Assembly (NCBI GenBank): GCA_025359505.1
Contig: JANYHH010000035.1
Location: 21,966 to 85,965 of the forward strand
DNA length: 64,000 nucleotides
Direction: 5' to 3'
Source of the DNA: Deinococcales bacterium
GTDB taxonomy: Bacteria; Deinococcota; Deinococci; Deinococcales; JAAFIG01
The notes beneath the pieces are model-generated. The model did no database searches and had not been told where the DNA came from. It saw only the letters and a list, made by a program, of their open reading frames with translations. The first letter of the stretch is position 1, and every line of letters starts with the position of its first letter. Below, piece after piece: positions 7,634 to 39,508 of this stretch. The translations under genes were made by a program, and so were the position numbers.

Positions 7634-8257
7634 ATGAATGAGGCAGCCAAACATTCCGCCTTGGTGTCTGCGCTGACCACCGAACACTTCGTGCTGCAAA
7701 CTGCCTCAAGTTCCACCATCTCTGAAGCTTCTGCGCGAAGCTCGCTGTACATTCTGTCGTTGTCCAGTTCGTTGGTTGCCATCGGGTTCATGTCCCAGTC
7801 GCCCGAAATGCTGCTGCCTTTCGTTGCCGTGGTGTTGCCCGTGCTGCTCCTGCTTGGCTTGTTCACCGTCATTCGGCTCGTGGACACTACGGTAGAGAAC
7901 TTGCAGTACCTCGTCGGTATCGCCCGGATTCGAGGGTACTACCGCTCGCTCTCGCCCGAAGCCGAGCCATATTTCTCGGTCAATACAGGCAGGTGGCCGG
8001 AGGCTAAAATAGTTCCGTCCCAAAGCTTAGGTGCGTCTATCGGGCAATTCGGCACGACCGCCACGATGATTGCTTTCGTCAACAGCGTCGTCGCTGGGGT
8101 GGCTGTGACGCTGGCAGTCAAAACGCTTTTGGGTAACGGATACATGACGGTCGCGTTGTTTTGCGGTGGCGTCTCGGTAATCCTGCTAATGATTGCATTT
8201 ACGTTCTATCAGCGCTGGCGGTTTATCAGCATCGGTTCCGCCATGCAACCCTTGTAG
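7634..8257 (+). CDS. Hypothetical integral membrane protein
   Basis: 207-aa ORF with about 4 predicted TM segments. No recognisable motif. Confidence 0.5.
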   Translation: MNEAAKHSALVSALTTEHFVLQTASSSTISEASARSSLYILSLSSSLVAIGFMSQSPEMLLPFVAVVLPVLLLLGLFTVIRLVDTTVENLQYLVGIARIRGYYRSLSPEAEPYFSVNTGRWPEAKIVPSQSLGASIGQFGTTATMIAFVNSVVAGVAVTLAVKTLLGNGYMTVALFCGGVSVILLMIAFTFYQRWRFISIGSAMQPL

Positions 8258-8866: not shown

Positions 8867-10222
8867 ATGAGTGAGGTCGTGGTCATCGGGGCGGGATTGG
8901 CTGGTTCGCAGGCGGCGCTGGCGGCGGCAGATGCAGGCGTGCAGGTGCGGTTGTATGAGATGCGCCCCGTCAAGATGACGCCCGCGCATCGCGGTCACGG
9001 CGCGTCGGAATTGGTGTGCAGCAATAGCCTTGGGGGTGAGGGCGAGACCAACGCCAAGGGGATGCTGCAAGCCGAACTTCGCGCCGCTCGAGTGGCTGTG
9101 ATGGACGCCGCCGATGGCAACCGCATTCCGGCGGGCAACGCGCTGGCGGTGGAGCGCGATGGCTTTAGCAGGGCGATCACGGCATTGCTCGAGGCGCACC
9201 CGAACATCACGATAGAACGCTCAGAGTTGACTCGAGTTCCCGACGAGGGTGTGGTCGTGATCGCGTCGGGGCCGCTGACTTCGGATGCGCTGGCGGCGGA
9301 CATCTTGGAGCGCTTTGCGGGTGGTGAGCGGCTGAGTTTTTACGATGCCGCCGCGCCGGTGATTGAGTTTGACAGCATCGATCTGGAGGTCGCGTTTCGG
9401 GCTGGGCGTTACGGGCAGGAAGCCGATTACCTCAACTGCCCGTTCGACCGCACTCAGTACGCGGCTTTTTACCAGCGGCTCGAGGAGGCTCGCAGTCACA
9501 CGCCACACGACTGGGAGAAGCTGGAGTTTTTTGAAGGCTGCATGCCGATCGAGGAAATTGCGCGGCGCGGGGTGGACACGCCCCGTTTCGGGCCCATGAA
9601 ACCCAAGGGTCTGCCCGATCCGCGCACGGGGCGCGAGGCGTTTGCGGTCGCGCAGTTGCGGCAAGAAGACTTGGAAGGGCGGCTGTGGAGTCTTGTCGGG
9701 TTCCAAACTGGCTTGAAATGGGGCGATCAAAAAGAGGTCGTGCGGCTGATCCCCGGTCTCGAGCAGGCTGAGATTGCCCGTTACGGTGTGATGCACCGCA
9801 ACACGTACCTCTGCGCCCCGAAGCTGCTCGAGTCTAGTTTGCAATTCAAGGCGCACCCGCGCTTATTTACCGCTGGCGTGCTGGCTGGCACAGAGGGGTA
9901 CTTGGAGAGCGCGGCGACGGGCTGGCTGGCTGGCGTCAACGCGGCTCGAGTTGCTTTGAATCTAGCGCCTGTCACGCCGCCTGCGACGACGATGCTCGGC
10001 GGCTTGGTGCGTTACCTTGCGACGGCCGAATCCAAGAACTTCCAGCCGATGAACACGAATTGGGCGCTCGTGCCCGACCTCGAGCCGGACGATCTGCCAG
10101 AGGAGTGGAAGAACCGTAAGAAACTTGGGCGACGCGAGCGGCGACCGCTGCTGTTTGCTCGTGGGCAACGCGATTTTCTCTCGTGGCTCGAGGGGCTGCG
10201 GGCTGGAACGCCCCTGAGGTAA
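8867..10222 (+). CDS. trmFO: Methylenetetrahydrofolate--tRNA-(uracil54-C5)-methyltransferase TrmFO (Gid)
   Basis: FAD fold VVVIGAGLAGSQAA, the block MTPAHRGHGASELVCSNSLG, and a 451-aa length typical of TrmFO. Confidence 0.9.
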   Translation: MSEVVVIGAGLAGSQAALAAADAGVQVRLYEMRPVKMTPAHRGHGASELVCSNSLGGEGETNAKGMLQAELRAARVAVMDAADGNRIPAGNALAVERDGFSRAITALLEAHPNITIERSELTRVPDEGVVVIASGPLTSDALAADILERFAGGERLSFYDAAAPVIEFDSIDLEVAFRAGRYGQEADYLNCPFDRTQYAAFYQRLEEARSHTPHDWEKLEFFEGCMPIEEIARRGVDTPRFGPMKPKGLPDPRTGREAFAVAQLRQEDLEGRLWSLVGFQTGLKWGDQKEVVRLIPGLEQAEIARYGVMHRNTYLCAPKLLESSLQFKAHPRLFTAGVLAGTEGYLESAATGWLAGVNAARVALNLAPVTPPATTMLGGLVRYLATAESKNFQPMNTNWALVPDLEPDDLPEEWKNRKKLGRRERRPLLFARGQRDFLSWLEGLRAGTPLR

Positions 10223-10233
10223 CGCGCCCCACA

Positions 10234-11388
10234 ATGACCAGTGCGTGCACACTACCGATGCTGCGAATCGTCAGATGGTTTACTATACTGAGCAACTTGT
10301 CTGCTCAATCTGCCACCGCCATCACTCGAGTGCAGCGTTTACGAACGCTGTCTGACCGCTTGTTCGGTAAGCGCCGCGATACGGGTATTGTCGCGCTGCT
10401 GATCGCGCTTTTGGAAATCGGAGTGGCGGCTGGCGTGTACCTGACGGGCGGCACGCAGTTTGTGTATCTGCAATTCATGTATATTCCAGTCGCGCTGGCC
10501 GGGCTGATTTTCGGCATGCTTGGTGGCGTGGTTTACGGGCTGTTCGCTGGGTTGATGCTGGGGCCGGTCATGCCGCTGAACGTCGAAGCCAACCTGCCGC
10601 AGCCGCTGCTGAGCTGGGTGATCCGGCTGGGGTTTTTGTGCTTGCAGGGACTGCTCGCCGGGTATGTGGGTGGGATGATTAAGCAGCGTTTGCGCGTGGT
10701 TGAGATCATCGCCGAGGAACTGTCGCTGACCTATGGGCGAATTTTACGCAGTCTGGTAGCGCTGATCGGCGAGCGCGACGACAAAACGGCCGATCACTCC
10801 GAGCGCGTTGCGTACAACGCGATTCAGATGGGGCAAGCGCTGCATCTGAACTCCACTGAACTCGAGACGCTGTACTGGGCGGCTGTGCTGCACGATCTGG
10901 GAAAAATTGGTGTGCCGGAAGCCATCCTGAATCATCCCGGCGTTTTATCGCTTGATGACCGCACGGCGATGCAGCGCCACGTCGAGATCGGCCAGCGTAT
11001 CTTGGAGCAGGCCAGCGTGGAGTTCGGGCCGATTGCCGCGATCGTCGCCACGCACCACGAGCGCTGGGATGGACTGGGCTACCCCAAGGGCTTGAAGGGC
11101 AAAGAAATTCCACTGGCCGGGCGGATTCTGACGGTGCTGGATGTCTTCGAGGCGCTGACCTCCAAGCGCCCGTACCGCGAGCCGATGCTGGCCGCAGAGG
11201 CGCTACACGTGATCCAAGCCGATCGTGACACGCGCTTTGACTCGAGCATCGTCGATGCGTTCGTGATGTTGTACAACAGCGGTCAATTGGCGCTCTCAGA
11301 AGTTAACGATGCACGAGTCGCACAATTGCATGACCGATACGGCTCTGGGGCGTTGCTGCTCAGTCGGTTGCAGTTGATTAAATCGTGA
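10234..11388 (+). CDS. Membrane-anchored HD-GYP domain phosphodiesterase
   Basis: ORF track 10183..11388. ATG 10234 avoids overlap with trmFO. N-terminal TM helices are followed by HSERVA...LHDLGKIGVP...HHERWDGLGYPKGL. Confidence 0.85.
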   Translation: MTSACTLPMLRIVRWFTILSNLSAQSATAITRVQRLRTLSDRLFGKRRDTGIVALLIALLEIGVAAGVYLTGGTQFVYLQFMYIPVALAGLIFGMLGGVVYGLFAGLMLGPVMPLNVEANLPQPLLSWVIRLGFLCLQGLLAGYVGGMIKQRLRVVEIIAEELSLTYGRILRSLVALIGERDDKTADHSERVAYNAIQMGQALHLNSTELETLYWAAVLHDLGKIGVPEAILNHPGVLSLDDRTAMQRHVEIGQRILEQASVEFGPIAAIVATHHERWDGLGYPKGLKGKEIPLAGRILTVLDVFEALTSKRPYREPMLAAEALHVIQADRDTRFDSSIVDAFVMLYNSGQLALSEVNDARVAQLHDRYGSGALLLSRLQLIKS

Positions 11389-25388: not shown

Positions 25389-26543
25389 TCACCAAATCTC
25401 GAGCAGCGCGTACTTCAAGTACCTCGACTCAGGCAAAGCTAAAAGCTCGGGGTGATCGCTGCTTTGCGCCCGTCGCTCGAGAATCCGTACGGAACGCCCT
25501 GCATCGCTGGCGCTGTCGCGTAACATTGCGTAGAAATCGGGTTCTGAAACGTGAAAACTGCATGATGCTGTCCCCAGAATTCCGCCAGCCTCGAGCAGTT
25601 TCATCGCCCGCAGATTTAATTCTTTGTAGGCGCGGTACGCGGCTGGCAGGTCGCGCTTGGCTTTGGCCAGCGCCGGCGGGTCGAGGCTGATCGTCTGGTA
25701 TTTGACGCCGCTACGCTCACGTTCGCGCAGAATATCGAAAGCGTTTCCAGCGGTGAAGCTGAGGTTCGTAAAACCGTTCAGCGCCGCGTTCTCGCGTCCG
25801 CGCTCGAGGGCGGGTTCACTGGCGTCGATGCACTCCACGTCGTCGCAGACGGTCGCCAGATGCAGCCCGAAACTGGCGTGATAGCTGAAAACATCGAGCG
25901 CCCGCCCATACGCTCGCGCCTTCAACGCGGCGCGGTTTTCGCGCTGATCCAGAAACGCACCGGTTTTCTGCCCGCGCCACGGATCGACCAGATAGCGCAC
26001 ATTGCCTTCGATGACCTCGAGCCAGTCCGGGACAGTACCGCGCAATTCAAAGACCCCAGTCTCCAGCCCCTCGAGCGAGCGGCTTTTACCATCGAACCGC
26101 GCCAGAATCCCCAGCGGGCGAAACTCCGCCTCGAGCGCGTCCAGCAAAGCAGGCAGGTGCGGCTCGAGGGCAGCGCTGTGCTGCTGAACCACCAGATAAT
26201 CGCCGTACTTATCGACGGTCACGCCGGGCAGCCCGTCGGCGTCGCTGTGAACAATTCTGAAGGCGTTGCCGTCGATGCTCGAGTCGGCGCGGCGGTGCTC
26301 GATCGCCCGCTCGAGGTGCGTCAATAGCAGGGCTTCACCCGCAGGTTTCATGCCCCTCGTCAGCATCCGCACGGTGATCTCGGATTGCGGGTTGACGGCT
26401 GCCCAACCCAGTACGCGCCCGCGTGCATCGTGAACGGGATACAGCCCAGCACTGGGCGGCATTTGCGCGACATCCGAGCGGTAGATCCACGGGTGGCCAG
26501 TGGTGAAGCGCTCTAAACCACGGGCGGAGAGGGTCACGGTCAT
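25389..26543 (-). CDS. Class I SAM-dependent rRNA (cytosine-C5) methyltransferase, RlmI-like (PUA + MTase)
   Basis: 384 aa. N-terminal PUA-like region, then KTGAFLDQRENR and ISLDPPALAK blocks typical of RlmI/YccW. Confidence 0.75.
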   Translation of the reverse strand: MTVTLSARGLERFTTGHPWIYRSDVAQMPPSAGLYPVHDARGRVLGWAAVNPQSEITVRMLTRGMKPAGEALLLTHLERAIEHRRADSSIDGNAFRIVHSDADGLPGVTVDKYGDYLVVQQHSAALEPHLPALLDALEAEFRPLGILARFDGKSRSLEGLETGVFELRGTVPDWLEVIEGNVRYLVDPWRGQKTGAFLDQRENRAALKARAYGRALDVFSYHASFGLHLATVCDDVECIDASEPALERGRENAALNGFTNLSFTAGNAFDILRERERSGVKYQTISLDPPALAKAKRDLPAAYRAYKELNLRAMKLLEAGGILGTASCSFHVSEPDFYAMLRDSASDAGRSVRILERRAQSSDHPELLALPESRYLKYALLEIW

Positions 26544-27140: not shown

Positions 27141-27458
27141 TTGGAAGCCAACACTGGAATTTTGAAGGACTTGGCCAGCCGTGAAGTGGCGCTGACCCAA
27201 AAAGTCGAGGCCGCCAAAGCCGAAGCGCTGAAAGTCATCGCCGAGGCCGAGGTCAAAGCCAAAGAAGCGTTCACCAAAGCTCAAAGCGATGCGTCCGCAC
27301 TCGAGGCGGAGTACCGCACGCGCCGCGAGAGCGAAGCCGACAGCATTCTCAAAGGTGGTATGAGCGCCGCCAAAGCCAGCGCTGACGCGGCTCGTGCGGC
27401 CGCGCAGAGCAAAATCGCCGATGCCGTCAAGGTCATCGTCGCAAAGGTACTGCCGTGA
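27141..27458 (+). CDS. V/A-type ATPase peripheral-stalk subunit G/H-like coiled-coil protein
   Basis: TTG start after GGAGGAGGGG. 105-aa Ala/Glu/Lys-rich helix at the first position of the operon, as in the Thermus G-I-K-E-C-F-A-B-D order. Confidence 0.6.
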   Translation: MEANTGILKDLASREVALTQKVEAAKAEALKVIAEAEVKAKEAFTKAQSDASALEAEYRTRRESEADSILKGGMSAAKASADAARAAAQSKIADAVKVIVAKVLP

Positions 27459-27474
27459 AGTCGGGGTTGCAAGC

Positions 27475-29595
27475 ATGATCGCTGGAATGTCAGAAGTGCT
27501 GATTCTCGGACGCAAGCGCGACACCTTAGAGGTCGTGCGGGCGCTGCAAGACGTGGGCATCGTGCAACTCGACCCGATTGAACCGGGCGAACTCCCGAAA
27601 GCCGTGCTGGTCGGGGCGGACGCGGAGCGTAAAGCGCAACTCGAGCGGCAACTCGCCCGCGCTGAGAGCGCTTTGGCGGCCATGGGCGCGACCGATGCCA
27701 TGCCCGAGCCGAGCAAACTGCGCGGTGCGGATTTATCAGCCATGCTCGAGGATGTCGGCCATCGCGCCGATGTGCTGAGCAAGGAGCGCAATGACCTAGC
27801 CAGTGAGCTGAGCGCCATTGGCAGTTTCGGCAGTCTGGCTCGAGTGCTGGCCGAGTTGAGTGGTTCGCTGGGCAAGAGCGGGCGCGTGGCGGTGCTGGGC
27901 TTCACGTTTGCCGACGAGGACAAGCCGCGCTTGGAGCAAAACCTCAAAGACGCTGGGTTGACCTATACGCTTGGTCACGGTCTCGCGCCGAAAGGTAACG
28001 CGGGCGTGCTGGCAGTGCGCGTGCAAGACGTGGCGGCTGCTCGCACCGCGCTGTCGCGCTCTGGGCTGGCGGAGCTGCGCTTCCCCGGCGCGTTCGAGGG
28101 ACTGAGCTACACGGAAGCCTCGAGCCGCATGGAGCAGCGCTCGCGCACCGCGCCCGAGGAGTTGCAGGGCATTACGGCTGGTTTGGAGAAGCTCAAGCTC
28201 GAGTCCGGCGGCGCTTTGTCGGCAGCCCGCAATGAGCTGCGCGACGAACTCTCGCGTTTCGATGCGGTGGGTAACAGCGTCGCGGGCAAGTACGGCTTCG
28301 CGCTGCGCGGCTGGGTTCCTAACGCCGATAAGGCTAGCCTCGAGTCGGCATTAGCGCCGCTCAAAGGTCAGGTCGTTTATCAGTTCGCGGCTGCGCCCGA
28401 GTATCACGCCGAACACGTGCCGGTGAAACTCGAGAACAACGCGGCGTTCAGACCGTTTGAATTGCTGCTCGGGATGTTCGCGCCGCCCGCGTATGGCACG
28501 TTCGATCCGACGTGGGTGCTGGCGATCTGCTTCCCGCTGTTTTTTGGCTTTGTGATCGGCGACGTGGGACTGGGCGCGGTGTCCTTGGCGCTGGCGTTCT
28601 TCCTGCGCGGCATGGCCGCCAAGGGCAGGACACTGGATTTGGGGCCCTTGGGCATCACCGTGCCACCCAAGCCGCTGTTCCAAGTCTCGAGCGTTTTGAC
28701 GTGGATGGCGGTCTGGAGCATCGTTTTCGGCTTCTTGTACGGCGAGTTCTTCGGTACGCTCGGCGAGAATCTGGGCTTGTTCCACGTCGTCAAACAAGAG
28801 GTTGTCGTGGATGGTGTGAAGCAGAAACTCGCCGTCTCGAGCCTCGCGGCTGCGCCCAAAGCTGAGAGCGAGACTAAATACGAATACGAATGGCTCGAGG
28901 ACGGACATTTCCCCAGCGCCGAACACGCCCGCGAGTACCACGAGGAGCGCCACCACGGTCTGCCGATTGTCATGCCCCGGGTGAAGTCTGAATTCGCAAA
29001 CATCATGTTGATTCTGGCGCTGATCCCCGGCATCTTGCAGGTCTTGGGTGGCTGGCTGCTCAGGGCGCAGATGGGTTTGAAGCACCACAACCAGATGCAT
29101 TTCTGGGAAGGCGTCGGGATGTTCTTAGGACTGGTCGGCGTGATCGTTTTCGCGTACTACTACCGCAATCCCGGCTCGAGCCAACTGCTGGTGTATGTCT
29201 CGATTGCCTGCTTGCTGGCGTTTGCCGCGAGCGCCGTGATGGTCATGCGCCACAACGCGATCACAGGCGGCATGATGTTCATTGAAATCCTCTCCAACGG
29301 CGGCGCGATCCTCTCGTACCTGCGTTTGTTCGCCGTCGGTTTATCCAGCGCGATCCTCGCTAACCTCGCCACCGACTTGGGTTGGAATCTGGGCGGGTCA
29401 CTCGGCGCGATTGGCATTCTGATCGGGATTCTCGTGGCGACCTTCGTCCACCTCTTCGCCATCGTCTTCACGATCATCGGTCACGTGCTGCAACCATTGC
29501 GACTTCACTACGCCGAGTTTTTCACCAAGTTCGGGTTCTACGACGAATCGGGTCGTCGTTACAAGCCATTTGCTCGAGTTGGACAGCACACCTAA
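27475..29595 (+). CDS. atpI: V/A-type ATPase subunit I (a)
   Basis: ORF track 27394..29595, likely ATG 27475 (MIAGMSEVLILGRKRD). Cytoplasmic N-terminal half plus a C-terminal TM domain containing LSYLRLFAVGLSS. Confidence 0.9.
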   Translation: MIAGMSEVLILGRKRDTLEVVRALQDVGIVQLDPIEPGELPKAVLVGADAERKAQLERQLARAESALAAMGATDAMPEPSKLRGADLSAMLEDVGHRADVLSKERNDLASELSAIGSFGSLARVLAELSGSLGKSGRVAVLGFTFADEDKPRLEQNLKDAGLTYTLGHGLAPKGNAGVLAVRVQDVAAARTALSRSGLAELRFPGAFEGLSYTEASSRMEQRSRTAPEELQGITAGLEKLKLESGGALSAARNELRDELSRFDAVGNSVAGKYGFALRGWVPNADKASLESALAPLKGQVVYQFAAAPEYHAEHVPVKLENNAAFRPFELLLGMFAPPAYGTFDPTWVLAICFPLFFGFVIGDVGLGAVSLALAFFLRGMAAKGRTLDLGPLGITVPPKPLFQVSSVLTWMAVWSIVFGFLYGEFFGTLGENLGLFHVVKQEVVVDGVKQKLAVSSLAAAPKAESETKYEYEWLEDGHFPSAEHAREYHEERHHGLPIVMPRVKSEFANIMLILALIPGILQVLGGWLLRAQMGLKHHNQMHFWEGVGMFLGLVGVIVFAYYYRNPGSSQLLVYVSIACLLAFAASAVMVMRHNAITGGMMFIEILSNGGAILSYLRLFAVGLSSAILANLATDLGWNLGGSLGAIGILIGILVATFVHLFAIVFTIIGHVLQPLRLHYAEFFTKFGFYDESGRRYKPFARVGQHT

Positions 29596-29781
29596 TTACA
29601 TTGTCGTTCTGGAAATGTAGTTATGTTAAAATCTTGGACTGGCAATAAACTCGTTCCACACAGCACATCGTTAAGCTTTAAAAATCTTTGAGTCCAAGTT
29701 TTAACTGTAGAGATACTGCTCGAGTCAGCCAGCGGGTCTGAATTCCAGACTCAGCTACACTGGTTTTATCGGAGGATAGTT

Positions 29782-30111
29782 ATGAAAAAGCACGCCATGT
29801 TGATTGTTTCCGCACTCGTCTTCGCCCTGTTCGCCTCGGTCGGTCTGGCCCAAGAAGCCGCCGCTGTCGCCACCGGCCCAGTCGGCACGAGCCTCGGTGG
29901 TGGACTCGTCGCCATCGGTGCGGGCCTCGCGCTCGGACTGGCGGCTTTGGGCGTCGGTATCGCGCAGAGCAGCATCGGTGCGGCCGCCGCTGGAGCCGTC
30001 GCCGAAGACCGTAGCCTGTTCGGTCAATTGCTGATCTACATCGTCATCCCAGAAACGCTGATCATCTTCGGGTTCCTCGTCGTGATCTTCTTCCAAAGCG
30101 CCATCAAGTAA
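29782..30111 (+). CDS. atpK: V/A-type ATPase proteolipid subunit K (c)
   Basis: Gly/Ala-rich TM hairpin with the conserved IPETLIIFG glutamate. Confidence 0.9.
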   Translation: MKKHAMLIVSALVFALFASVGLAQEAAAVATGPVGTSLGGGLVAIGAGLALGLAALGVGIAQSSIGAAAAGAVAEDRSLFGQLLIYIVIPETLIIFGFLVVIFFQSAIK

Positions 30112-30156
30112 ACTTGTGAGCCAAGTCATGCCTGTGAGCGTAGAGAGGAACTATTC

Positions 30157-30729
30157 ATGGCTGACCTAGCCAGTTTGCTCGAGAGCGAAGCCCAAGCCGA
30201 GATCGAAGCGATCCTCGGTGAGGCCCGCATCAAAGCCGATGGCATCGTGAAAGCTGGTGAGGACAGCGCCAAGAGTTACTTTGAGGGCAAGAAACGCGCT
30301 CTGGAGAACGACTTGAACGCCGCCATCACCCGCGCCAAGAGCGGTGCGGAGTTGGAAGGCGCGGCGCTGACCCTGCAAGCCAGTCACGGAGCCAACGAGC
30401 AGGCGTTTAGCTCGGCAATGAGCGAGCTGAAAGCCTTCACCAAGTCTGGGGAATACGAACACACGCTGACCAAGCTGATCAAAGAGGTCAAAACCGCTTT
30501 GGGCAGCATCACCAAGCTCGAGGTCAACCCGAGCGACATTGAAACCGCCAAACGCGCCGCGAGCGCCGCTGGGGTAGACGCTCCAGTCACCGGCAATGCC
30601 GACATCGAAACCGGCGTTCGCGCTGTCGCCGAAGGCGGAGCCTCGAGCGTCACCAACACGCTGATCGGGCGTTTGAGCCGGGCACGCGACAGCTTGCTCA
30701 GCGAAGTCGCCAGCGTGCTGAAAGCCTGA
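30157..30729 (+). CDS. atpE: V/A-type ATPase subunit E
   Basis: 190 aa with an N-terminal long helix. Assignment rests on its position in the operon. Confidence 0.8.
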   Translation: MADLASLLESEAQAEIEAILGEARIKADGIVKAGEDSAKSYFEGKKRALENDLNAAITRAKSGAELEGAALTLQASHGANEQAFSSAMSELKAFTKSGEYEHTLTKLIKEVKTALGSITKLEVNPSDIETAKRAASAAGVDAPVTGNADIETGVRAVAEGGASSVTNTLIGRLSRARDSLLSEVASVLKA

Positions 30730-30742
30730 GGGGGCACAAACC

Positions 30743-31744
30743 ATGCCCGATAACTACGCTTACATCAACGCCCGCGTCAGGGCGATGCACTCCAAGCTGA
30801 TCACCGAAAAGCTCGAGGAGACCATTCAAGCCTCGAGCTACGGCGAGTTTTTACGGATTCTGTCCGAGTCCAATTTGGGTGCGGATATCGGCGAGGCGAC
30901 GGCTGCGGGCGCGGGCTTGCCGCAACTCGATGCTGCGCTGTCCCGCAACTTCTTCAGCACCGCCCAGAAAGTCGTCGGCATGGCGGACGGCTCGAGCGGG
31001 CGCGACATCGCATTGCTGTTTGCGCGGTATGACCTGCTCAACTTAAAAGCGGTCGCACGCGGGAAAATCGGCGGTCGCAGCGCGGCAGACGTGATCCCGA
31101 GCTTGTTGCCCGCTGGTTCGCTGAAACCCAGCGTGCTCGAGGCTCTGGCCAACGCGCCGGAACTGGGCAACCTCGGCGGGGTCGCGGGCTTGGCGGCTAC
31201 ACCGCTGGCCAGCGCGTTCCGCAAGGGCGTCGCGCAACTGGCGACCGACGGCGACCTGCTGACTTTTGAAGTCGCGCTCGATCAGGCGTACTACAGCACC
31301 GCGCTCAGTGAAGCCTCGAGTAGCGTCCTGAAAGATTACCTGCGCCGCGAGGTCGACGGCGCGAACATCCTGACTGCGCTGAAACTCAAAGCGCAGGGCC
31401 GCACGGAAAACCTCGAGCCGTACTTCATCGCGGGTGGGCGCGAGGTGGACAAAACCCGTTTCGGGCAACTCGCCAGCGGCAACGGCGGACTCGAGGGGCT
31501 GCGGGCCTTCTCTGGACTGTCCGACGCCAGCGACCTCTCGAGCGCCGAGACCTTGGTGCGCGGCGTGCTGCTGAGCAATGCCAAACGCCTGTACGCCTCT
31601 GACGCACTGGGCATCGGCGTGGTGATCGGCTTCCTGAAAGACAAAGAGCGCGAGGTCGCCGTGACCCGCCTGATCGGTCGCGCCAAGTATTACAACGTGC
31701 CTTTGGAGACGCTGCGAAAAGAGGTGGGAGGCAATGGCAACTAA
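30743..31744 (+). CDS. atpC: V/A-type ATPase subunit C (d)
   Basis: 333 aa. N-terminus YAYINARVRAMHSKL is typical of subunit C/d. Confidence 0.85.
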   Translation: MPDNYAYINARVRAMHSKLITEKLEETIQASSYGEFLRILSESNLGADIGEATAAGAGLPQLDAALSRNFFSTAQKVVGMADGSSGRDIALLFARYDLLNLKAVARGKIGGRSAADVIPSLLPAGSLKPSVLEALANAPELGNLGGVAGLAATPLASAFRKGVAQLATDGDLLTFEVALDQAYYSTALSEASSSVLKDYLRREVDGANILTALKLKAQGRTENLEPYFIAGGREVDKTRFGQLASGNGGLEGLRAFSGLSDASDLSSAETLVRGVLLSNAKRLYASDALGIGVVIGFLKDKEREVAVTRLIGRAKYYNVPLETLRKEVGGNGN

Positions 31745-32060
31745 AATGGCCATCCTGACCGACGGCGAAAGCGCCACGGGCTTCAGGCTCGCGGGCGTCG
31801 AAGTGCTCGAGGCGACCAGTGAGACCGCCACGAAAACGCTCGAGGCGGCGATTGCGTCCAATCAGTTTGGCTTGATCGCGATTGACGAGAGCATCGTTGC
31901 TGATCCCAGCAAAGCCATGGAGCGTCAGATGCGCGGACGCGATTTGCCCGTGCTGCTGACCATCCCGTCGCTGGCTGTGGCGTTTAGCGACAGCGTGGAC
32001 GCGAAGGCGTACATGCGGGCGTTGGTTCGCAGCACGATTGGGTTCGACATCAAGTTGTAA
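31734..32060 (+). CDS. atpF: V/A-type ATPase subunit F
   Basis: 108 aa. KMAILTDGESATGFRLAGV pattern. Confidence 0.85.
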   Translation: MATKMAILTDGESATGFRLAGVEVLEATSETATKTLEAAIASNQFGLIAIDESIVADPSKAMERQMRGRDLPVLLTIPSLAVAFSDSVDAKAYMRALVRSTIGFDIKL

Positions 32061-32156
32061 GCTCGAGAGAAGTTTTGCTTGAGAGAAGTTTTGGTAGTGC
32101 AGCCCGTAAAAGTCTCGAGATCAACTCGAGCCAGATCAAGGCATTAGGGGGTAACT

Positions 32157-33893
32157 ATGGCAGGCAAAATCAAGAAAATTGCCGGGCCAGCGGTGATCGT
32201 CGAGAGTCTCGACGGCGCGAAGATGAACGACATCGTTCGCGTCGGTAAAGAGCAACTCGTCGGCGAGATCATCCGCTTGGATGGCAACGAATGCTTCGTG
32301 CAGGTTTACGAGGACACCAACGGTCTGACGGTCGGCGAGGACGTGATCTCCACGAACCTGCCGCTGGCTGTGGAACTGGGGCCCGGAATGCTCAACGGTG
32401 TCTTCGACGGTATTCAGCGCCCACTGGACAAAATCCGCGAGGCATCTGGCGATTTCATCGCCAGGGGCGTCAACGTCAAATCGCTGTCCCGCGAGCAAAA
32501 GTGGGACTTCACGCCGGGCGTCAAGGTCGGCGATCAGGTCGAGGGCGGCTCGAGCCTCGGAACTGTGCCGGAGTTCTCGTTCACGCACAAGATTCTCGTG
32601 CCGCCAACGGTTTCCGGCAAAATCAAGAGCATCAAACCCGCTGGTAGCTACACGATTGAAGAGGTCGTGGCGACGCTCGAGGATGGCACTGAGTTGAAGA
32701 TGTACCACAACTGGGCGGTGCGCCGCGCACGCCCGGTCACGCGCAAGCTCGACCCGAACCTGCCGTTCCTCACCGGAATGCGGATTCTGGACGTGCTCTG
32801 CCCGCTGACCGCTGGCGGCACGGCCGCGATTCCGGGCCCGTTCGGTAGCGGCAAGACCGTCACGCAGCAGTCAATCGCTAAATACGGCAATGCCGACATT
32901 GTGGTCTACGTCGGTTGCGGCGAGCGCGGCAACGAGATGACGGACGTATTGGTCGAATTCCCGGAACTCGAGGATCCCAAAACGGGTAAGCCGCTGATGC
33001 AACGCACGATTCTCTTGGCGAACACCAGCAACATGCCGGTCGCCGCTCGAGAAGCCTCGCTGTACTGCGGCGTCACGCTCGCCGAGTACTTCCGCGATCA
33101 GGGCTACGCCGTGAGCATGATGGCGGACAGCACGAGCCGTTGGGCGGAAGCGTTGCGCGAAATCGCGTCGCGTTTGCAAGAAATGCCCGCCGAGGAAGGC
33201 TACCCGCCGTACCTCTCGAGCCGCTTGTCCGCCTTCTACGAGCGTGCCGGTCGCGTCACGACCCTCGCGGGCGACGCTGGCAGCGTTTCGGTCATCGGCG
33301 CGGTTTCCCCAGCCGGTGGCGATCTCTCCGAACCCGTCACGCAATCCACGCTCCGCATCACTGGGGCGTTCTGGGCGCTTGACGCGAGCCTCGCCCGCGC
33401 CCGCCACTTCCCGGCGATCAACTGGGCAGGCAGCTACAGCTTGTTCATCAACGTCCTCGAGCCTTGGTACAGAGAGAACATCGCGGCCGATTACCCAGAG
33501 AAGCGCAAGGAACTGATTGTGCTGCTGCAACGCGAAGCCGCGCTTCAGGAAGTCGTGCAACTCGTCGGGCCGGACGCATTGGCAGACAACGAGCGCCTGT
33601 CGCTCGAGGTTGGCCGCATCATCCGCGAGGATTTCCTGCAACAAAACGGTTACGACAAAGTGGACGCTTCGTGCAGCATGGAAAAAGCCTACGGCATGAT
33701 CGACATGATGCTCGAGCTGTACAAATCCGGCGATAAGATGCTCAAAAGCGGCGGAGCAATCAGTGACTTCTTAGATGACGCTGCCGTGATCGAAAAAGTC
33801 GGTCGCGCCCGCTTCGTGCCAGAAGCCGAGTTCCCCGCTTACAAAGGCGAGTACATGAAGATGCTCGAGACGGCGTTCAAGGCCAAAGCTTAA
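32157..33893 (+). CDS. atpA: V/A-type ATPase catalytic subunit A
   Basis: Walker [10 protein letters not shown], the non-homologous-region insert, and the [10 protein letters not shown] block. Confidence 0.95.
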
Positions 33894-33897
33894 ACCC

Positions 33898-34350
33898 ATG
33901 CGCTTCCTCGTCGCCGTGCTGATCTTCGTCGCCTCGAGCGCATTGGCGCAAAGCGTGATTCGCTTTGCGCTGCTGCCGAGCGACGTGCAAACGGCGGTGG
34001 CGGGGTTTGACGAATTTGGGCGACCGAGTGTGCTGGTGCAACTCACGACTGAGGCCGGCAAGCGCTTTGAGCGGCTGACCTGCGCGAACATCGGCAAGCA
34101 GCTCGAGTTGACGGTGCGCGATTCAGTGGTGATTAACGCTAAGATCGTGGAGTGTATACCGAACGGTAGGTTGCAGATCAGCGGGAAATTCACGGTCGAA
34201 GAAACCCAAGCCATCGCCCGCAACCTCGAGCCGAATCAGCCGCAGGAAATCGCGGCTCAGCCCGTGCAGAACGCGCCCTTCGCACAGAATTTGCTTGAGA
34301 AAATGGTCAACTGGTTCAGTGAATTGTTGAAGATATTGTTCAGGAGGTGA
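33898..34350 (+). CDS. Small secreted protein with a SecD/SecF P1-head-like domain, inserted between atpA and atpB
   Basis: Signal peptide MRFLVAVLIFVASSALAQS. FDEFGRPSVLVQLTTEAGKRFERLTCANIGKQLELTV...ISGKFTVEETQAIARNL mirrors the SecDF head motif FDQFGRPxVxxxLxxEGAKKFxxxTxxNIGKRLAIVLDG...G..S.EEA (recalled from memory). 4-nt gaps separate it from both neighbours. Confidence 0.6.
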   Translation: MRFLVAVLIFVASSALAQSVIRFALLPSDVQTAVAGFDEFGRPSVLVQLTTEAGKRFERLTCANIGKQLELTVRDSVVINAKIVECIPNGRLQISGKFTVEETQAIARNLEPNQPQEIAAQPVQNAPFAQNLLEKMVNWFSELLKILFRR

Positions 34351-34354
34351 GTGA

Positions 34355-35758
<1,404 letters not shown>

Positions 35759-35868
35759 GGCAGGCGAAGGGCAAAGGTTAAAAGGCAAAGGGAACGTCAA
35801 CGGCTCGAGCGCATATCTCGAGATTGCACAGGTTTTACAGTTCCCTTCGCCCTTCGCCTTTTGCCTGC
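35759..35868. repeat. Imperfect inverted repeat of a purine-rich motif (GCAGGCGAAGGGCAAAGG...AAGGGAAC) in the atpB-atpD spacer
   Basis: Left arm 35759-35795, right arm 35840-35868. Related single copies occur at 43801-43820 and 46381-46414. Confidence 0.6.
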
Positions 35869-35883
35869 ACCAAGGAGCTACCC

Positions 35884-36558
35884 ATGGCAGAACAAATCAG
35901 TCCAACCCGCTCGAACCTGCTGGCCCGGCGCGGCTCGAGACGCTTGGCGGTGCAGGGTGCGGATCTTTTGAAGCGCAAGCGCGACGCGCTGATCGGTGAG
36001 TTTTTTGCGCTGGTTAAAGAGTCCCTAGCGGCGAGGGAGATGTTGCAGCAGTCCAGCAAAGACGCCTACTTCGCGCTGTTCCTCGCTAAAGCGTGGGACG
36101 CGCCCGAAGCCGTCGAATCGCTGGCGCTCGCCCGTCCCGCTGGTCTCGAGCTGGAACTGCAAGTCGAGAGCATCTACGGCGTGAAGATCCCGAAGATCAC
36201 GCTGCCGGAGTTTTCCAAAGAGCTGCCGTTCTCACCGATCGGCGCGGGCGCTCGCACCTTGGAGGCAGCCGTGCAGTTTCAAAATCTGGTCGAGGCAATC
36301 ATCAAAGTCGCCGCGACTGAGAACAAGCTGCGGCGCATCGGTGAGGAAATCAAGAAGACCTCACGGCGCGTCAATGCCTTGGAGCAAATCGTCATTCCCG
36401 GCATTCAGGGTGAGATCAAGTTCATCACCGACACTTTGGATCAACGCGCTTTAGAAGAGGTCACGACGCTGAAACGCATCAAGGCCAAGATTGACCTCGA
36501 CGAAGCGACCGCCAAAGGTTTGGTCACTGCCGCGAACGAAATCGGTGCTGGACTCTAG
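35884..36558 (+). CDS. atpD: V/A-type ATPase central-stalk subunit D
   Basis: ORF track 35824..36558. ATG 35884 after AAGGAG gives MAEQISPTRSNLL...LKRKRDAL, typical of subunit D. Confidence 0.9.
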   Translation: MAEQISPTRSNLLARRGSRRLAVQGADLLKRKRDALIGEFFALVKESLAAREMLQQSSKDAYFALFLAKAWDAPEAVESLALARPAGLELELQVESIYGVKIPKITLPEFSKELPFSPIGAGARTLEAAVQFQNLVEAIIKVAATENKLRRIGEEIKKTSRRVNALEQIVIPGIQGEIKFITDTLDQRALEEVTTLKRIKAKIDLDEATAKGLVTAANEIGAGL

Positions 36559-36608: not shown

Positions 36609-36650
36609 ACGTGCTTGTCGAAACCAGCCCTGCCCACTCAACTCGAGCGT

Positions 36651-36842
36651 ATGAACGCCGTGCCAGATATTCAAAACCTCAGTGTTCCAGAGCGCTTGGA
36701 TTTGCTCGAGCGAATCTGGGAGAGTTTGACGAGTGAAAACGCCGTGCCAGAGTTGACGGACGCGCAGAAACTCGAGGATCGCCGTGTGCTTGAGTATAGT
36801 GTCTTATGGCGCTCAACCAAATTGACCTCACCGCATTGGTGA
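36651..36842 (+). CDS. Putative addiction-module antitoxin component (TIGR02574-like). The C-terminus looks degenerate and there is no toxin partner.
   Basis: LSVPERLDLLERIWESL....PELTDAQKLEDRRV matches the family pattern as I recall it. The tail overlaps the S9 peptidase start. Confidence 0.4.
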   Translation: MNAVPDIQNLSVPERLDLLERIWESLTSENAVPELTDAQKLEDRRVLEYSVLWRSTKLTSPHW

Positions 36843-38632: not shown

Positions 38633-38738
38633 TCGGCTGGTCTCAAAACTTATGACGCTGACCCAAGCACAAGGCGTTCATGGGCGGAGGCTCGAGCTAG
38701 GGTTTTTAACTCACCGCAAAAGTGATAGCGTTTGCCGC

Positions 38739-39122
38739 ATGTCACTGACCCTGACCCTCGAGCCAAGCCTCGAAGAGCGCTTGCGTCTCGAGGCAGAGCA
38801 ACGCGGGCTGTCGGTTGAGCTGTGGCTGGTGCAGGAACTCGAGCAGCGCTTCCAAACGACAGACAAGGCGTCATTGCTGGAGCGTGTTGCGGGCGGTTTG
38901 CCAGCATCGTTTTGGATCTCGTATCGGGCGCTTATCGCCAAGCGCGATGCCGAGGACTTGAGCGATTCCGAGCGCCTCGAGTTGATTGCGATGGCAGATC
39001 AGACTGAAGCGTCGACGCTGCGCCGCGCCGAAGCCTTGGTGGAACTGGCGAAAAGGCGCAGCACAACGGTGTCCGCGTTGCGCTCGCTGTTTGGTTTACA
39101 ACCCATTGCCGTCCAGTCATGA
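38739..39122 (+). CDS. Hypothetical protein with an N-terminal ribbon-helix-helix-like segment
   Basis: ORF track 38652..39122. ATG 38739 gives MSLTLTLEPSLEERLRLEAEQRGLSVELWLVQELEQRF. ATGA overlap with the HNH gene. Confidence 0.5.
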   Translation: MSLTLTLEPSLEERLRLEAEQRGLSVELWLVQELEQRFQTTDKASLLERVAGGLPASFWISYRALIAKRDAEDLSDSERLELIAMADQTEASTLRRAEALVELAKRRSTTVSALRSLFGLQPIAVQS

Positions 39123-39508
39123 CGCAAAATCAAATTCGAGTGCTCGTGGTGACTCGAGCGGGTGGGCGCTGCGAGTATTGCCGATCACCATTGGAATTCT
39201 CGAGCGACGATTTCGCGGTGGAACACATCGTCCCCAAGTCACTGTCGGGATCGGATGAACTGGGGAATCTGGCGCTGTCGTGCCAAGGTTGTAACAGCCG
39301 CAAATTTGTTTCCATAAATGCCATTGATCCAGCGACGGGACTCGAGAGTCGCTTGTACCCCCCACGCTTGGATGATTGGGTCACCCATTTTCAATGGAGC
39401 GATGACGCGACCATACTGATTGGATTGACAGCCGTTGCTCGAGCGACGATTGAACGACTGGAACTCAACCGCTCGAGGGCACGCACAAGCGTCGCGTGCT
39501 GGCGCTAG
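39119..39508 (+). CDS. HNH endonuclease
   Basis: CEYCRSP....EHIVPKSLSGSDELGNLALSCQGCNSRK (HNH with Cys4 Zn). Confidence 0.8.
   Translation: MTQNQIRVLVVTRAGGRCEYCRSPLEFSSDDFAVEHIVPKSLSGSDELGNLALSCQGCNSRKFVSINAIDPATGLESRLYPPRLDDWVTHFQWSDDATILIGLTAVARATIERLELNRSRARTSVACWR

Follow-up and report, generated by a model that had tools for sequence, protein, structure and literature searches.

A stand-alone SecDF P1-head protein encoded between atpA and atpB in the V/A-ATPase operon of an uncultured Deinococcota clade

The window analyzed here, a stretch of 64,000 nucleotides from a Deinococcales bacterium (GenBank assembly GCA_025359505.1, contig JANYHH010000035.1), carries a complete V/A-ATPase operon in which an open reading frame (ORF) of 150 codons is placed between atpA and atpB, the genes for the A and B subunits. 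This ORF is a real gene that codes for a protein, and purifying selection acts on it. What is new about it is that a stand-alone protein with the fold of the SecDF P1 head, equipped with a family-specific tail made up of a leash and a helix, is fixed in a rotary ATPase operon. An ATPase-directed role of the product at the periplasmic face of Vo is the single most likely reading of these data, with a probability of about 0.4.

A head domain predicted to be exported, in the atpA-atpB slot

The first-pass annotation of this DNA had described a 150-amino-acid ORF between atpA and atpB with gaps of four nucleotides on both sides. The coordinates confirm this arrangement (Table 1), with ACCC as the spacer after atpA and GTGA as the spacer before atpB. 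Given these tight junctions and the conservation of the slot, the ORF is encoded inside the atp operon, and we infer that it is transcribed together with its neighbors. All canonical V/A-ATPase subunits are encoded separately in the operon, as identified by Pfam, and the ORF has no homology to any known subunit of the enzyme (A3B3DFE2G2 d a c12); Pfam and NCBIfam return the SecD head only. No Rfam family or tRNA overlapping the ORF was found, nor was a structured RNA.

Several lines of evidence show that the frame is protein-coding. Specifically, the ratio of nonsynonymous to synonymous substitution rates (dN/dS, by the Nei-Gojobori method) is 0.15-0.36 across homologs and 0.26 for the least saturated pair, the window and the metagenome contig L003, as expected of a coding sequence under purifying selection that is far less constrained than AtpA and AtpB, for which the same method gives 0.06-0.15 (atpA) and 0.04-0.10 (atpB). 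The GC content at third codon positions (GC3) is 0.77, the same as in the neighboring atp genes. A spurious or decaying ORF without function might be suspected, given that the gene is small and unnamed, is restricted to one lineage and has been lost in relatives; this suspicion is effectively refuted by a Pfam score far above the cut-off, a confidently predicted fold, the dN/dS values, 19 intact homologs and the host-like GC3. A recent foreign insertion was likewise considered and rejected, as both GC and GC3 match those of the operon and neither a flanking repeat nor a target duplication is visible at the junctions. The ORF on the opposite strand (33771..34223), which is also 150 amino acids long, is an ordinary GC-rich shadow ORF.

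The predicted product starts with an M-R n-region and a 12-residue hydrophobic core, FLVAVLIFVASS, followed by ALA and then QS, as seen by inspection and hydropathy. Kyte-Doolittle hydropathy exceeds 1.7 across residues 1-19, and heuristics recognize all three parts of a Sec signal: a positive n-region, an h-region and AXA at positions -3/-1. The N-terminus has the typical makeup of a signal for Sec and signal peptidase I, and a lipobox is not present in it. The Sec signal peptide that had been claimed at first sight therefore stands on inspection and hydropathy, and AXA followed by Gln is kept in 18/18 full-length homologs. The same segment might conceivably remain uncleaved as a signal anchor, which would yield a bitopic protein with a periplasmic head and a tail contacting a partner. 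The hydrophobic segment could indeed span the membrane, notably in the second subfamily described below with its leader of 26-29 residues, but the AXA at -3/-1 and the Gln after it persist in all 18 members despite leaders that diverge between subfamilies, and the mature N-terminus, QSV(I/V)RF, which makes up strand one of the head, is likewise conserved. As such, we regard a membrane-anchored variant as rather improbable.

The mature part is dominated by a single recognizable domain. PF22599 (SecDF_P1_head) is the sole Pfam match, with 57.6 bits against a cut-off of 27 (E=1.4e-15, residues 28-110), and the alignment covers profile positions 24-107 of 114, that is, a minimal head. With phmmer, the ORF matches the Thermus thermophilus SecDF (3AQO/3AQP) at E ~1e-10 and the Deinococcus radiodurans SecDF only at E ~1. 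Two AlphaFold2 (AF2) runs, which used 4 and 17 sequences, agree on an alpha/beta core of residues 20-110 with a predicted local distance difference test score (pLDDT) of 84-92. Searched against the PDB with Foldseek, this model retrieves only SecDF P1 heads (the top 8 matches are all heads), the best being 3AQO with a root-mean-square deviation (RMSD) of 1.6 Å over 87 columns and 38% identity. The resemblance to the SecDF P1 head that had been noticed by eye is thus well founded in profile, sequence and structure comparisons, and all motif strings quoted in its support are present in the translation.

Beyond the head, a Pro/Gln-rich linker, which both runs predict to be disordered over residues ~114-130, leads to a C-terminal helix that AF2 predicts with a pLDDT of 60-69. 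The last 20 residues, rich in Trp, Phe and Arg, have a hydrophobic moment of ~2.0 (Kyte-Doolittle), which is matched by 24/2000 shuffles, and a mean hydropathy of ~0.2-0.6. With such modest hydropathy and so high a moment, the helix is not transmembrane-like, and a role as transmembrane anchor is ruled out by hydropathy. Two cysteines of the head, Cys62 and Cys86, are jointly present or jointly absent across the family, the pattern expected of a disulfide; this putative bond would fit an oxidizing, extracytoplasmic location.

Table 1 Features of the V/A-ATPase operon and of the inserted ORF, with positions in the window
Feature	Position	Strand	Basis or remark
V/A-ATPase operon, atpG-I-K-E-C-F-A-[ORF]-B-D	27141..36558	+	Pfam match per subunit
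Subunit I (atpI) insertion, ~55 aa, His/Glu-rich, MH3-MH4 loop, aa ~437-496	28783..28962 (approximate)	+	Alignment
atpA, catalytic A subunit, 578 aa	32157..33893	+	Stop TAA at 33891-33893
Inserted ORF, 150 aa, ATG start, TGA stop	33898..34350	+	Pfam, dN/dS, same slot in homologs
Signal peptide, aa 1-17 (MRFLVAVLIFVASSALA, then QSV)	33898..33948	+	Hydropathy, conserved AXA before Q, predicted helix 4-16; cleavage predicted
SecDF P1-head-fold domain, aa 18-110	33949..34227	+	PF22599, AF2, Foldseek
Cys62 codon TGC	34081..34083	+	Half of putative disulfide
Cys86 codon TGT	34153..34155	+	Other half of putative disulfide
Pro/Gln-rich flexible linker, aa 111-129	34228..34284	+	pLDDT <50 in both runs (aa 114-131, aa 114-129)
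C-terminal amphipathic helix, aa 130-150 (QNLLEKMVNWFSELLKILFRR)	34285..34347	+	AF2 helix in both runs (128-148, 130-149)
atpB Shine-Dalgarno AGGAGGTGA, read in the ORF as Arg-Arg-stop	34342..34350	+	L001 and L003 have the identical element
atpB, B subunit, 467 aa	34355..35758	+	

The ORF is shared by a small family. A first word-indexed search returned 4 proteins only; when 1.8 billion representatives were searched exhaustively with a profile, 3 family clusters stood atop ~4,100 generic head-domain matches, and a six-member profile then gave 19 family clusters (at 90% identity), all of them from metagenome-assembled genomes or metagenomes and all carrying PF22599. Among GTDB species representatives, one genome only has the family pattern, and a scan of metagenome contigs of the Joint Genome Institute (JGI) with the family patterns gave no match. 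The members are unnamed, labeled 'hypothetical protein' or, at JGI, 'preprotein translocase subunit SecD'. The AXA-Gln site, head, linker (7-26 residues across the family) and amphipathic tail are kept in 18/18 full-length members, and the tail helix, with a moment of 1.75-2.05, is found in all 19 members. Two subfamilies can be told apart: the first (7 clusters, including the window) has a 17-residue leader and both Cys62 and Cys86 in 7/7, the second (12 clusters) a leader of 26-29 residues and neither cysteine in 12/12.

Wherever the genomic context could be read, namely in five family lineages and the window, the gene occupies the atpA-atpB slot, and all these contexts belong to one uncultured Deinococcota clade. 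They comprise the 5.09-Mb chromosome OZ252252.1 of a 'Deinococcales bacterium' (L001/L007), a short Logan contig with the window's own protein (L002, 100% identical), short metagenome contigs of the European Nucleotide Archive (L003-L006), a 173-kb JGI contig with a Logan contig (L008/L009), short JGI contigs whose flanks were verified as the AtpA C-terminus and the AtpB N-terminus (L010-L012), and GCA_965188805.1 (L015). The equal size of their longest contigs and those of AtpA matches suggests that four further members are co-located with atpA. The initial impression of an oddity of this genome thus holds for the slot, which is unusual, but not for the genome, as the ORF is conserved in one uncultured clade, with 19 clusters. 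No paper was found in the literature on a stand-alone P1-head protein, on a link of such a protein to the V-ATPase, or on these assemblies.

Relation to SecDF and to free head modules

A head domain does not make the product a SecD. No Pfam match to an RND-type (resistance-nodulation-division) membrane domain (SecD_SecF_C) was found in the ORF, whose only hydrophobic stretch is the signal peptide, and there is no match to the P1 base (SecD_1st, PF21760), unlike in the genuine SecDs P0028 and P0046. The NCBIfam models for SecD and SecDF (TIGR01129, NF009585 and related models) match the head segment only, at 21-46 bits against cut-offs of 149-1249. Judged by these domain searches, the product is not SecD, since P1 base, P4 domain and membrane domain are all missing. 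Without a proton-conducting membrane domain, furthermore, it cannot run on the proton-motive force, and a link between SecDF and the ATPase through that force, at which the first-pass annotation had hinted, is speculative.

What the protein does share with SecDF is the fold of the P1 head (3AQO/3AQP/5YHF; 5XAM/5XAN/5XAP), with 38-39% identity to the Thermus head and an RMSD of 1.6-2.0 Å, and, in our proposal, a periplasm-facing position near the membrane on a flexible connection. It lacks the P1 base, P4 and the 12-helix proton-conducting membrane domain, and it adds a signal peptide of its own, the Cys pair and the C-terminal amphipathic helix. The P1 head of SecDF moves about in the periplasm and has an amphiphilic cavity that crosslinks to precursor proteins, and it is thought to capture chains as they come out of SecYEG; the cavity residues are poorly conserved even between SecDFs (PMC5974789).

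The family profile scores the SecDF of T. thermophilus at 50-52 bits, that of D. radiodurans at 26 and that of E. coli at 13, and more than 150 library proteins reach at least 54 bits, the best of which are not SecD. A recent duplication of the host's SecD was rejected because the Thermus SecDF ranks below the 150th library match (54 bits), a comparison that covered the SecDFs of T. thermophilus, D. radiodurans and E. coli; no SecDF gene lies within the window.

On the strength of these matches, the ORF is part of a larger set of head modules that exist outside SecD. Stand-alone PF22599 proteins are secreted proteins and lipoproteins of 120-170 amino acids (P0012, P0013, P0016 and P0019, for example), and their heads reach 41% identity to that of the ORF. 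Like the ORF product, they consist of a single exported head without the membrane part of SecD; in contrast to it, they carry the head at the C-terminus, have no tail helix and are often lipoproteins, and the two stand-alone P1-head genes whose surroundings were examined lie in unrelated neighborhoods outside ATPase operons. Compared with the head proteins retrieved by the profile search, only the ORF family has the linker with the amphipathic helix and the location between atpA and atpB. Because stand-alone secreted heads are common elsewhere, what is unusual about the ORF is limited to its place in the operon and its tail helix.

The head is also part of other architectures, as in P0007, P0009 and P0011: P0007 is a Ser/Thr protein kinase with two C-terminal P1 heads, P0011 has five P1 heads in tandem, and many small lipoproteins contain one. 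Overall, the PF22599 P1 head looks like a mobile, uncharacterized extracytoplasmic binding or sensor module. Two proteins of 152-157 amino acids, P0005 and P0275, bear the JGI label 'preprotein translocase subunit SecD'; with neither a SecD membrane domain nor a P1 base, this label is a misnomer, a domain-driven misannotation.

Insertion point, translation and descent

The first-pass annotation had assumed that atpA and atpB are canonically adjacent and that the ORF is an insertion between them. This is borne out by relatives in which the two genes adjoin without an ORF: a contig of Allomeiothermus silvanus (L021; AtpA 78% to the window, gap of 11 nucleotides), a Thermaceae-like sequence (L016; AtpA 79%, gap of 14 nucleotides) and the close relative L013 (GCA_013298595.1; AtpA and AtpB together 90.7%, gap of 12 nucleotides). 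The junction in L013 reads TAA-AGGAGGTGA-ATC-ATG and that in the window TAA-ACCC-[ATG...TTC]-AGGAGGTGA-GTGA-ATG, a comparison that places the insert exactly between the stop of atpA and the Shine-Dalgarno sequence (SD) of atpB. The ORF ends in FRR-stop, and this end is the atpB SD itself, as the new frame terminates at the TGA inside it; in subfamily 2 the end reads FRGR-stop. In L008 and L015, the ORF overlaps atpB by 13 nucleotides.

SD strength, taken as the duplex energy with the 16S anti-SD, differs widely between the two starts. At the atpB start, the duplex energy in the presence of the ORF is -13.8 to -16.2 kcal/mol (-16.2 in the window), while at the start of the ORF it is -2.8 kcal/mol in the window, the weakest value in the operon, whose other genes have -7.2 to -16.4. 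The corresponding values are -0.6 kcal/mol in L008, -3.1 in L003 and -15.0 in L010, where the ORF has a strong SD of its own. Since its SD is the weakest in the operon, translation of the ORF in this genome probably relies on reinitiation after atpA, and its output is probably below that of the A and B subunits. The co-transcription and translational coupling proposed at the outset are therefore plausible: a search of the + strand at both junctions gave neither a sigma-70-like promoter nor a terminator-like site, the ORF has a weak SD, and a strong SD for atpB lies in its end.

These features raise the question whether selection acts on the translation of a signal-peptide ORF at this site, which might tune atpB or keep the mRNA and its ribosomes near Vo, with the protein itself being secondary. 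The locking of the ORF's end to the atpB SD, the conserved tight coupling and the fact that no other segment is as well conserved between the window and L001/L003 as the signal peptide (88% identity, dN 0.06-0.09) are all compatible with this idea. Yet purifying selection acts on the head and the tail helix at the protein level, with the fold kept down to 36% identity; the mRNA is already brought to the membrane by the genes for subunits I and K, which lie upstream, and relatives without the ORF keep the same SD right after atpA. We consider a purely cis-acting role very improbable.

The gene is not universally retained. Four loci with intact operons, L013, L014, L016 and L021, are without it. 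In L014 (AtpA 84% to the window), a non-coding spacer of 138 nucleotides (7738-7875) separates atpA from atpB. That this spacer is a decayed remnant of the ORF was considered and rejected, as neither tblastn nor any reading frame gave similarity; the spacer holds an inverted repeat (CTCGAGCC...GGCTCGAG).

In a neighbor-joining tree of AtpA and AtpB, the window, L001 and L008 group at 96% bootstrap with the ORF-less L013 as sister, and the ORF-bearing L015 groups with the ORF-less L014 at 93%; the bootstrap counter double-counts one split slightly and reads '101%' there. Together with the adjacency of atpA and atpB in close relatives and in A. silvanus, this history probably comprises one gain at the base of the uncultured clade and at least two losses. 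Similarities of subunit I to that of the window, in turn, are 62% for L014, 57% for L013 and 56% for L015, an order that conflicts with the AtpA and AtpB tree. The disagreement suggests that the atp operon has recombined or is mosaic in the lineages of L013, L014 and L015, which may blur the history of gain and loss.

Some further observations concern the surroundings of the ORF. On its upstream side, the operon adjoins a PUA/SAM-methyltransferase gene that runs divergently on the minus strand (25389-26543). Downstream, an apparently orphan Unstab_antitox gene (36615-36842) follows right after atpD, as also in L008 (12735-12941) and L009 (6125-6349), and in L013 a MazE/PIN pair (9947-10626) lies directly 3' of atpD; all of these are of the toxin-antitoxin type. 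The listed ORF of atpI, which begins with GTG at 27394, shares its first part with the end of atpG; alignment with homologs indicates that the true start is the ATG at 27475 (MIAGMSEV...), and a distinct 39-amino-acid ORF is called in L001 in the interval that matches 27394-27475 of the window. Farther downstream, an HNH endonuclease gene (39119-39508, 129 amino acids) is preceded by an ORF of 156 amino acids (38652-39122) that overlaps it stop to start and has no Pfam match; the two could be a small mobile or defense-type cassette.

A possible role at the ATPase and known parallels

The explanation that we favor, and to which as a whole we give a probability of 0.42, is that the ORF encodes an exported polypeptide binder of the membrane surface which is made together with the ATPase and serves it as a dispensable accessory. 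In this model, the ORF would be transcribed with the operon and, in this genome, translated mainly by reinitiation after atpA; its product would be exported by Sec, cut after Ala17 and braced by a disulfide between Cys62 and Cys86. The tail helix would rest either on a membrane protein or on the cytoplasmic membrane itself, at its periplasmic leaflet, and would thereby keep the head above the membrane on a short flexible leash, similar to the way in which SecDF holds its own head. As the cavity of the SecDF head contacts unfolded precursor chains, the product would most likely bind extended polypeptides promiscuously at the surface of the membrane. As the product would be made together with the ATPase, its likeliest client or partner would be the periplasmic face of Vo (the loops of subunit I or the c-ring), for which it would act as an assembly or stabilizing accessory that is dispensable, and not as a core subunit.

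An ATPase-directed role is favored because the tailed family is found only in this slot and because a second insertion, in subunit I (Table 1), is present in 3/4 complete ORF-positive operons, beside the proton-entry half-channel. This His/Glu-rich insertion, which reads VVKQEVVVDGVKQKL...HFPSAEHAREYHEERHHG, is found by alignment in the window, L001 and L008, and is absent from L015, L013, L014 and L016. It is flanked by the aligned equivalents of a/E426 and a/R453 of the T. thermophilus enzyme, residues that line the periplasmic proton half-channel (PMC7367684). The loop could be a proton antenna, or a docking loop and periplasmic partner surface for the ORF product. A stronger version, in which the product is a true periplasmic accessory of the V/A-ATPase that docks by its tail helix, its head cavity or both onto subunit I or the c-ring beside the proton-entry half-channel, appears unlikely.

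Several points weigh against an ATPase-directed role. The gene is absent from the close relatives L013 (91-92% identity in AtpA and AtpB) and L014, so the ATPase works without it, and its dN is 5-8x that of AtpA and AtpB. The loop in subunit I and the ORF do not strictly co-occur, as L015 has the ORF without the loop. L001 carries a 128-amino-acid Cupin_2 gene (7825-8211) between atpF and atpA that is missing from the window; since the operon tolerates this unrelated gene, insertions in the operons of the clade need not be functional partners. The fixation of the slot, in turn, could be the mere inheritance of one insertion in a rigid operon. Finally, export, cleavage, disulfide formation and membrane binding are predictions from sequence, and the association of the product with the ATPase is a proposal.

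These points lead to the main competing explanation, which is nearly as likely as an ATPase-directed role. It holds that the product has a periplasmic polypeptide-binding, chaperone-like or other envelope role independent of the ATPase, and that the gene was inserted once, in an ancestor, into an operon that is expressed constitutively and at a high level and whose gene order rarely changes, and has been inherited there ever since. Secreted and lipoprotein versions of stand-alone P1 heads are abundant and occur in unrelated contexts, the ORF has been lost repeatedly, evolves fast and has a weak ribosome-binding site of its own, and the unrelated Cupin_2 gene has entered the same operon in L001, all of which fits such a passenger. 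What speaks for a tie to the operon is that no family member was found outside the atpA-atpB slot, even among pairs with saturated synonymous sites, that the tight junctions (4 nucleotides or an overlap) are retained, and that the family-specific tail helix suggests a dedicated docking surface.

Even as a passenger, the ORF would present a clean and datable case of a gene entering a tightly coupled operon without disturbing it. If the product does bind to Vo, it would be a candidate for a first periplasmic accessory factor of these enzymes, and also a case in which the substrate-binding head of SecDF is redeployed as a free module; to our knowledge, bacterial and archaeal V/A-ATPases are held to be minimal and without exoplasmic components. 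In the stronger version, no accessory subunit or assembly factor on the exoplasmic side of a prokaryotic rotary ATPase would precede it, and a substrate-binding module of the Sec machinery would have been recruited as a functional analogue of the luminal accessory subunits of eukaryotes. The significance is limited by the confinement of the ORF to an uncultured clade, by its dispensability and by the hypothetical nature of the link to the ATPase. Independent of this link, the PF22599 P1 head is flagged as a widespread, uncharacterized extracytoplasmic module that appears in lipoproteins, tandem arrays and kinase fusions, and database labels that name 150-amino-acid homologs 'SecD' can be corrected.

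Parallels also exist among the extra components of rotary ATPases. ATP6AP1/Ac45, ATP6AP2 and yeast Voa1 are luminal accessory subunits or assembly factors of the eukaryotic V-ATPase, and they are anchored by a true C-terminal transmembrane helix. The likeness of the ORF product to these proteins would be limited to the concept of an exoplasmic domain at Vo, outside the rotary core, where its own association with Vo is our proposal; its tail is amphipathic and not transmembrane, and neither Pfam nor the PDB reveals any similarity of sequence or fold to them. AtpI/UncI of F-type ATPases and AtpQ/AtpR of N-ATPases are integral membrane proteins encoded at the start of their operons. With these, the ORF shares the status of a small extra gene in a rotary ATPase operon that is dispensable and has a presumed assembly role, but its product is an exported soluble domain, and its gene lies between those of the catalytic subunits. 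Among V/A-ATPases, it is the enzyme of Thermus that serves as structural reference. This enzyme is stated to be without the accessory subunits of its eukaryotic counterparts (PMC7367684).

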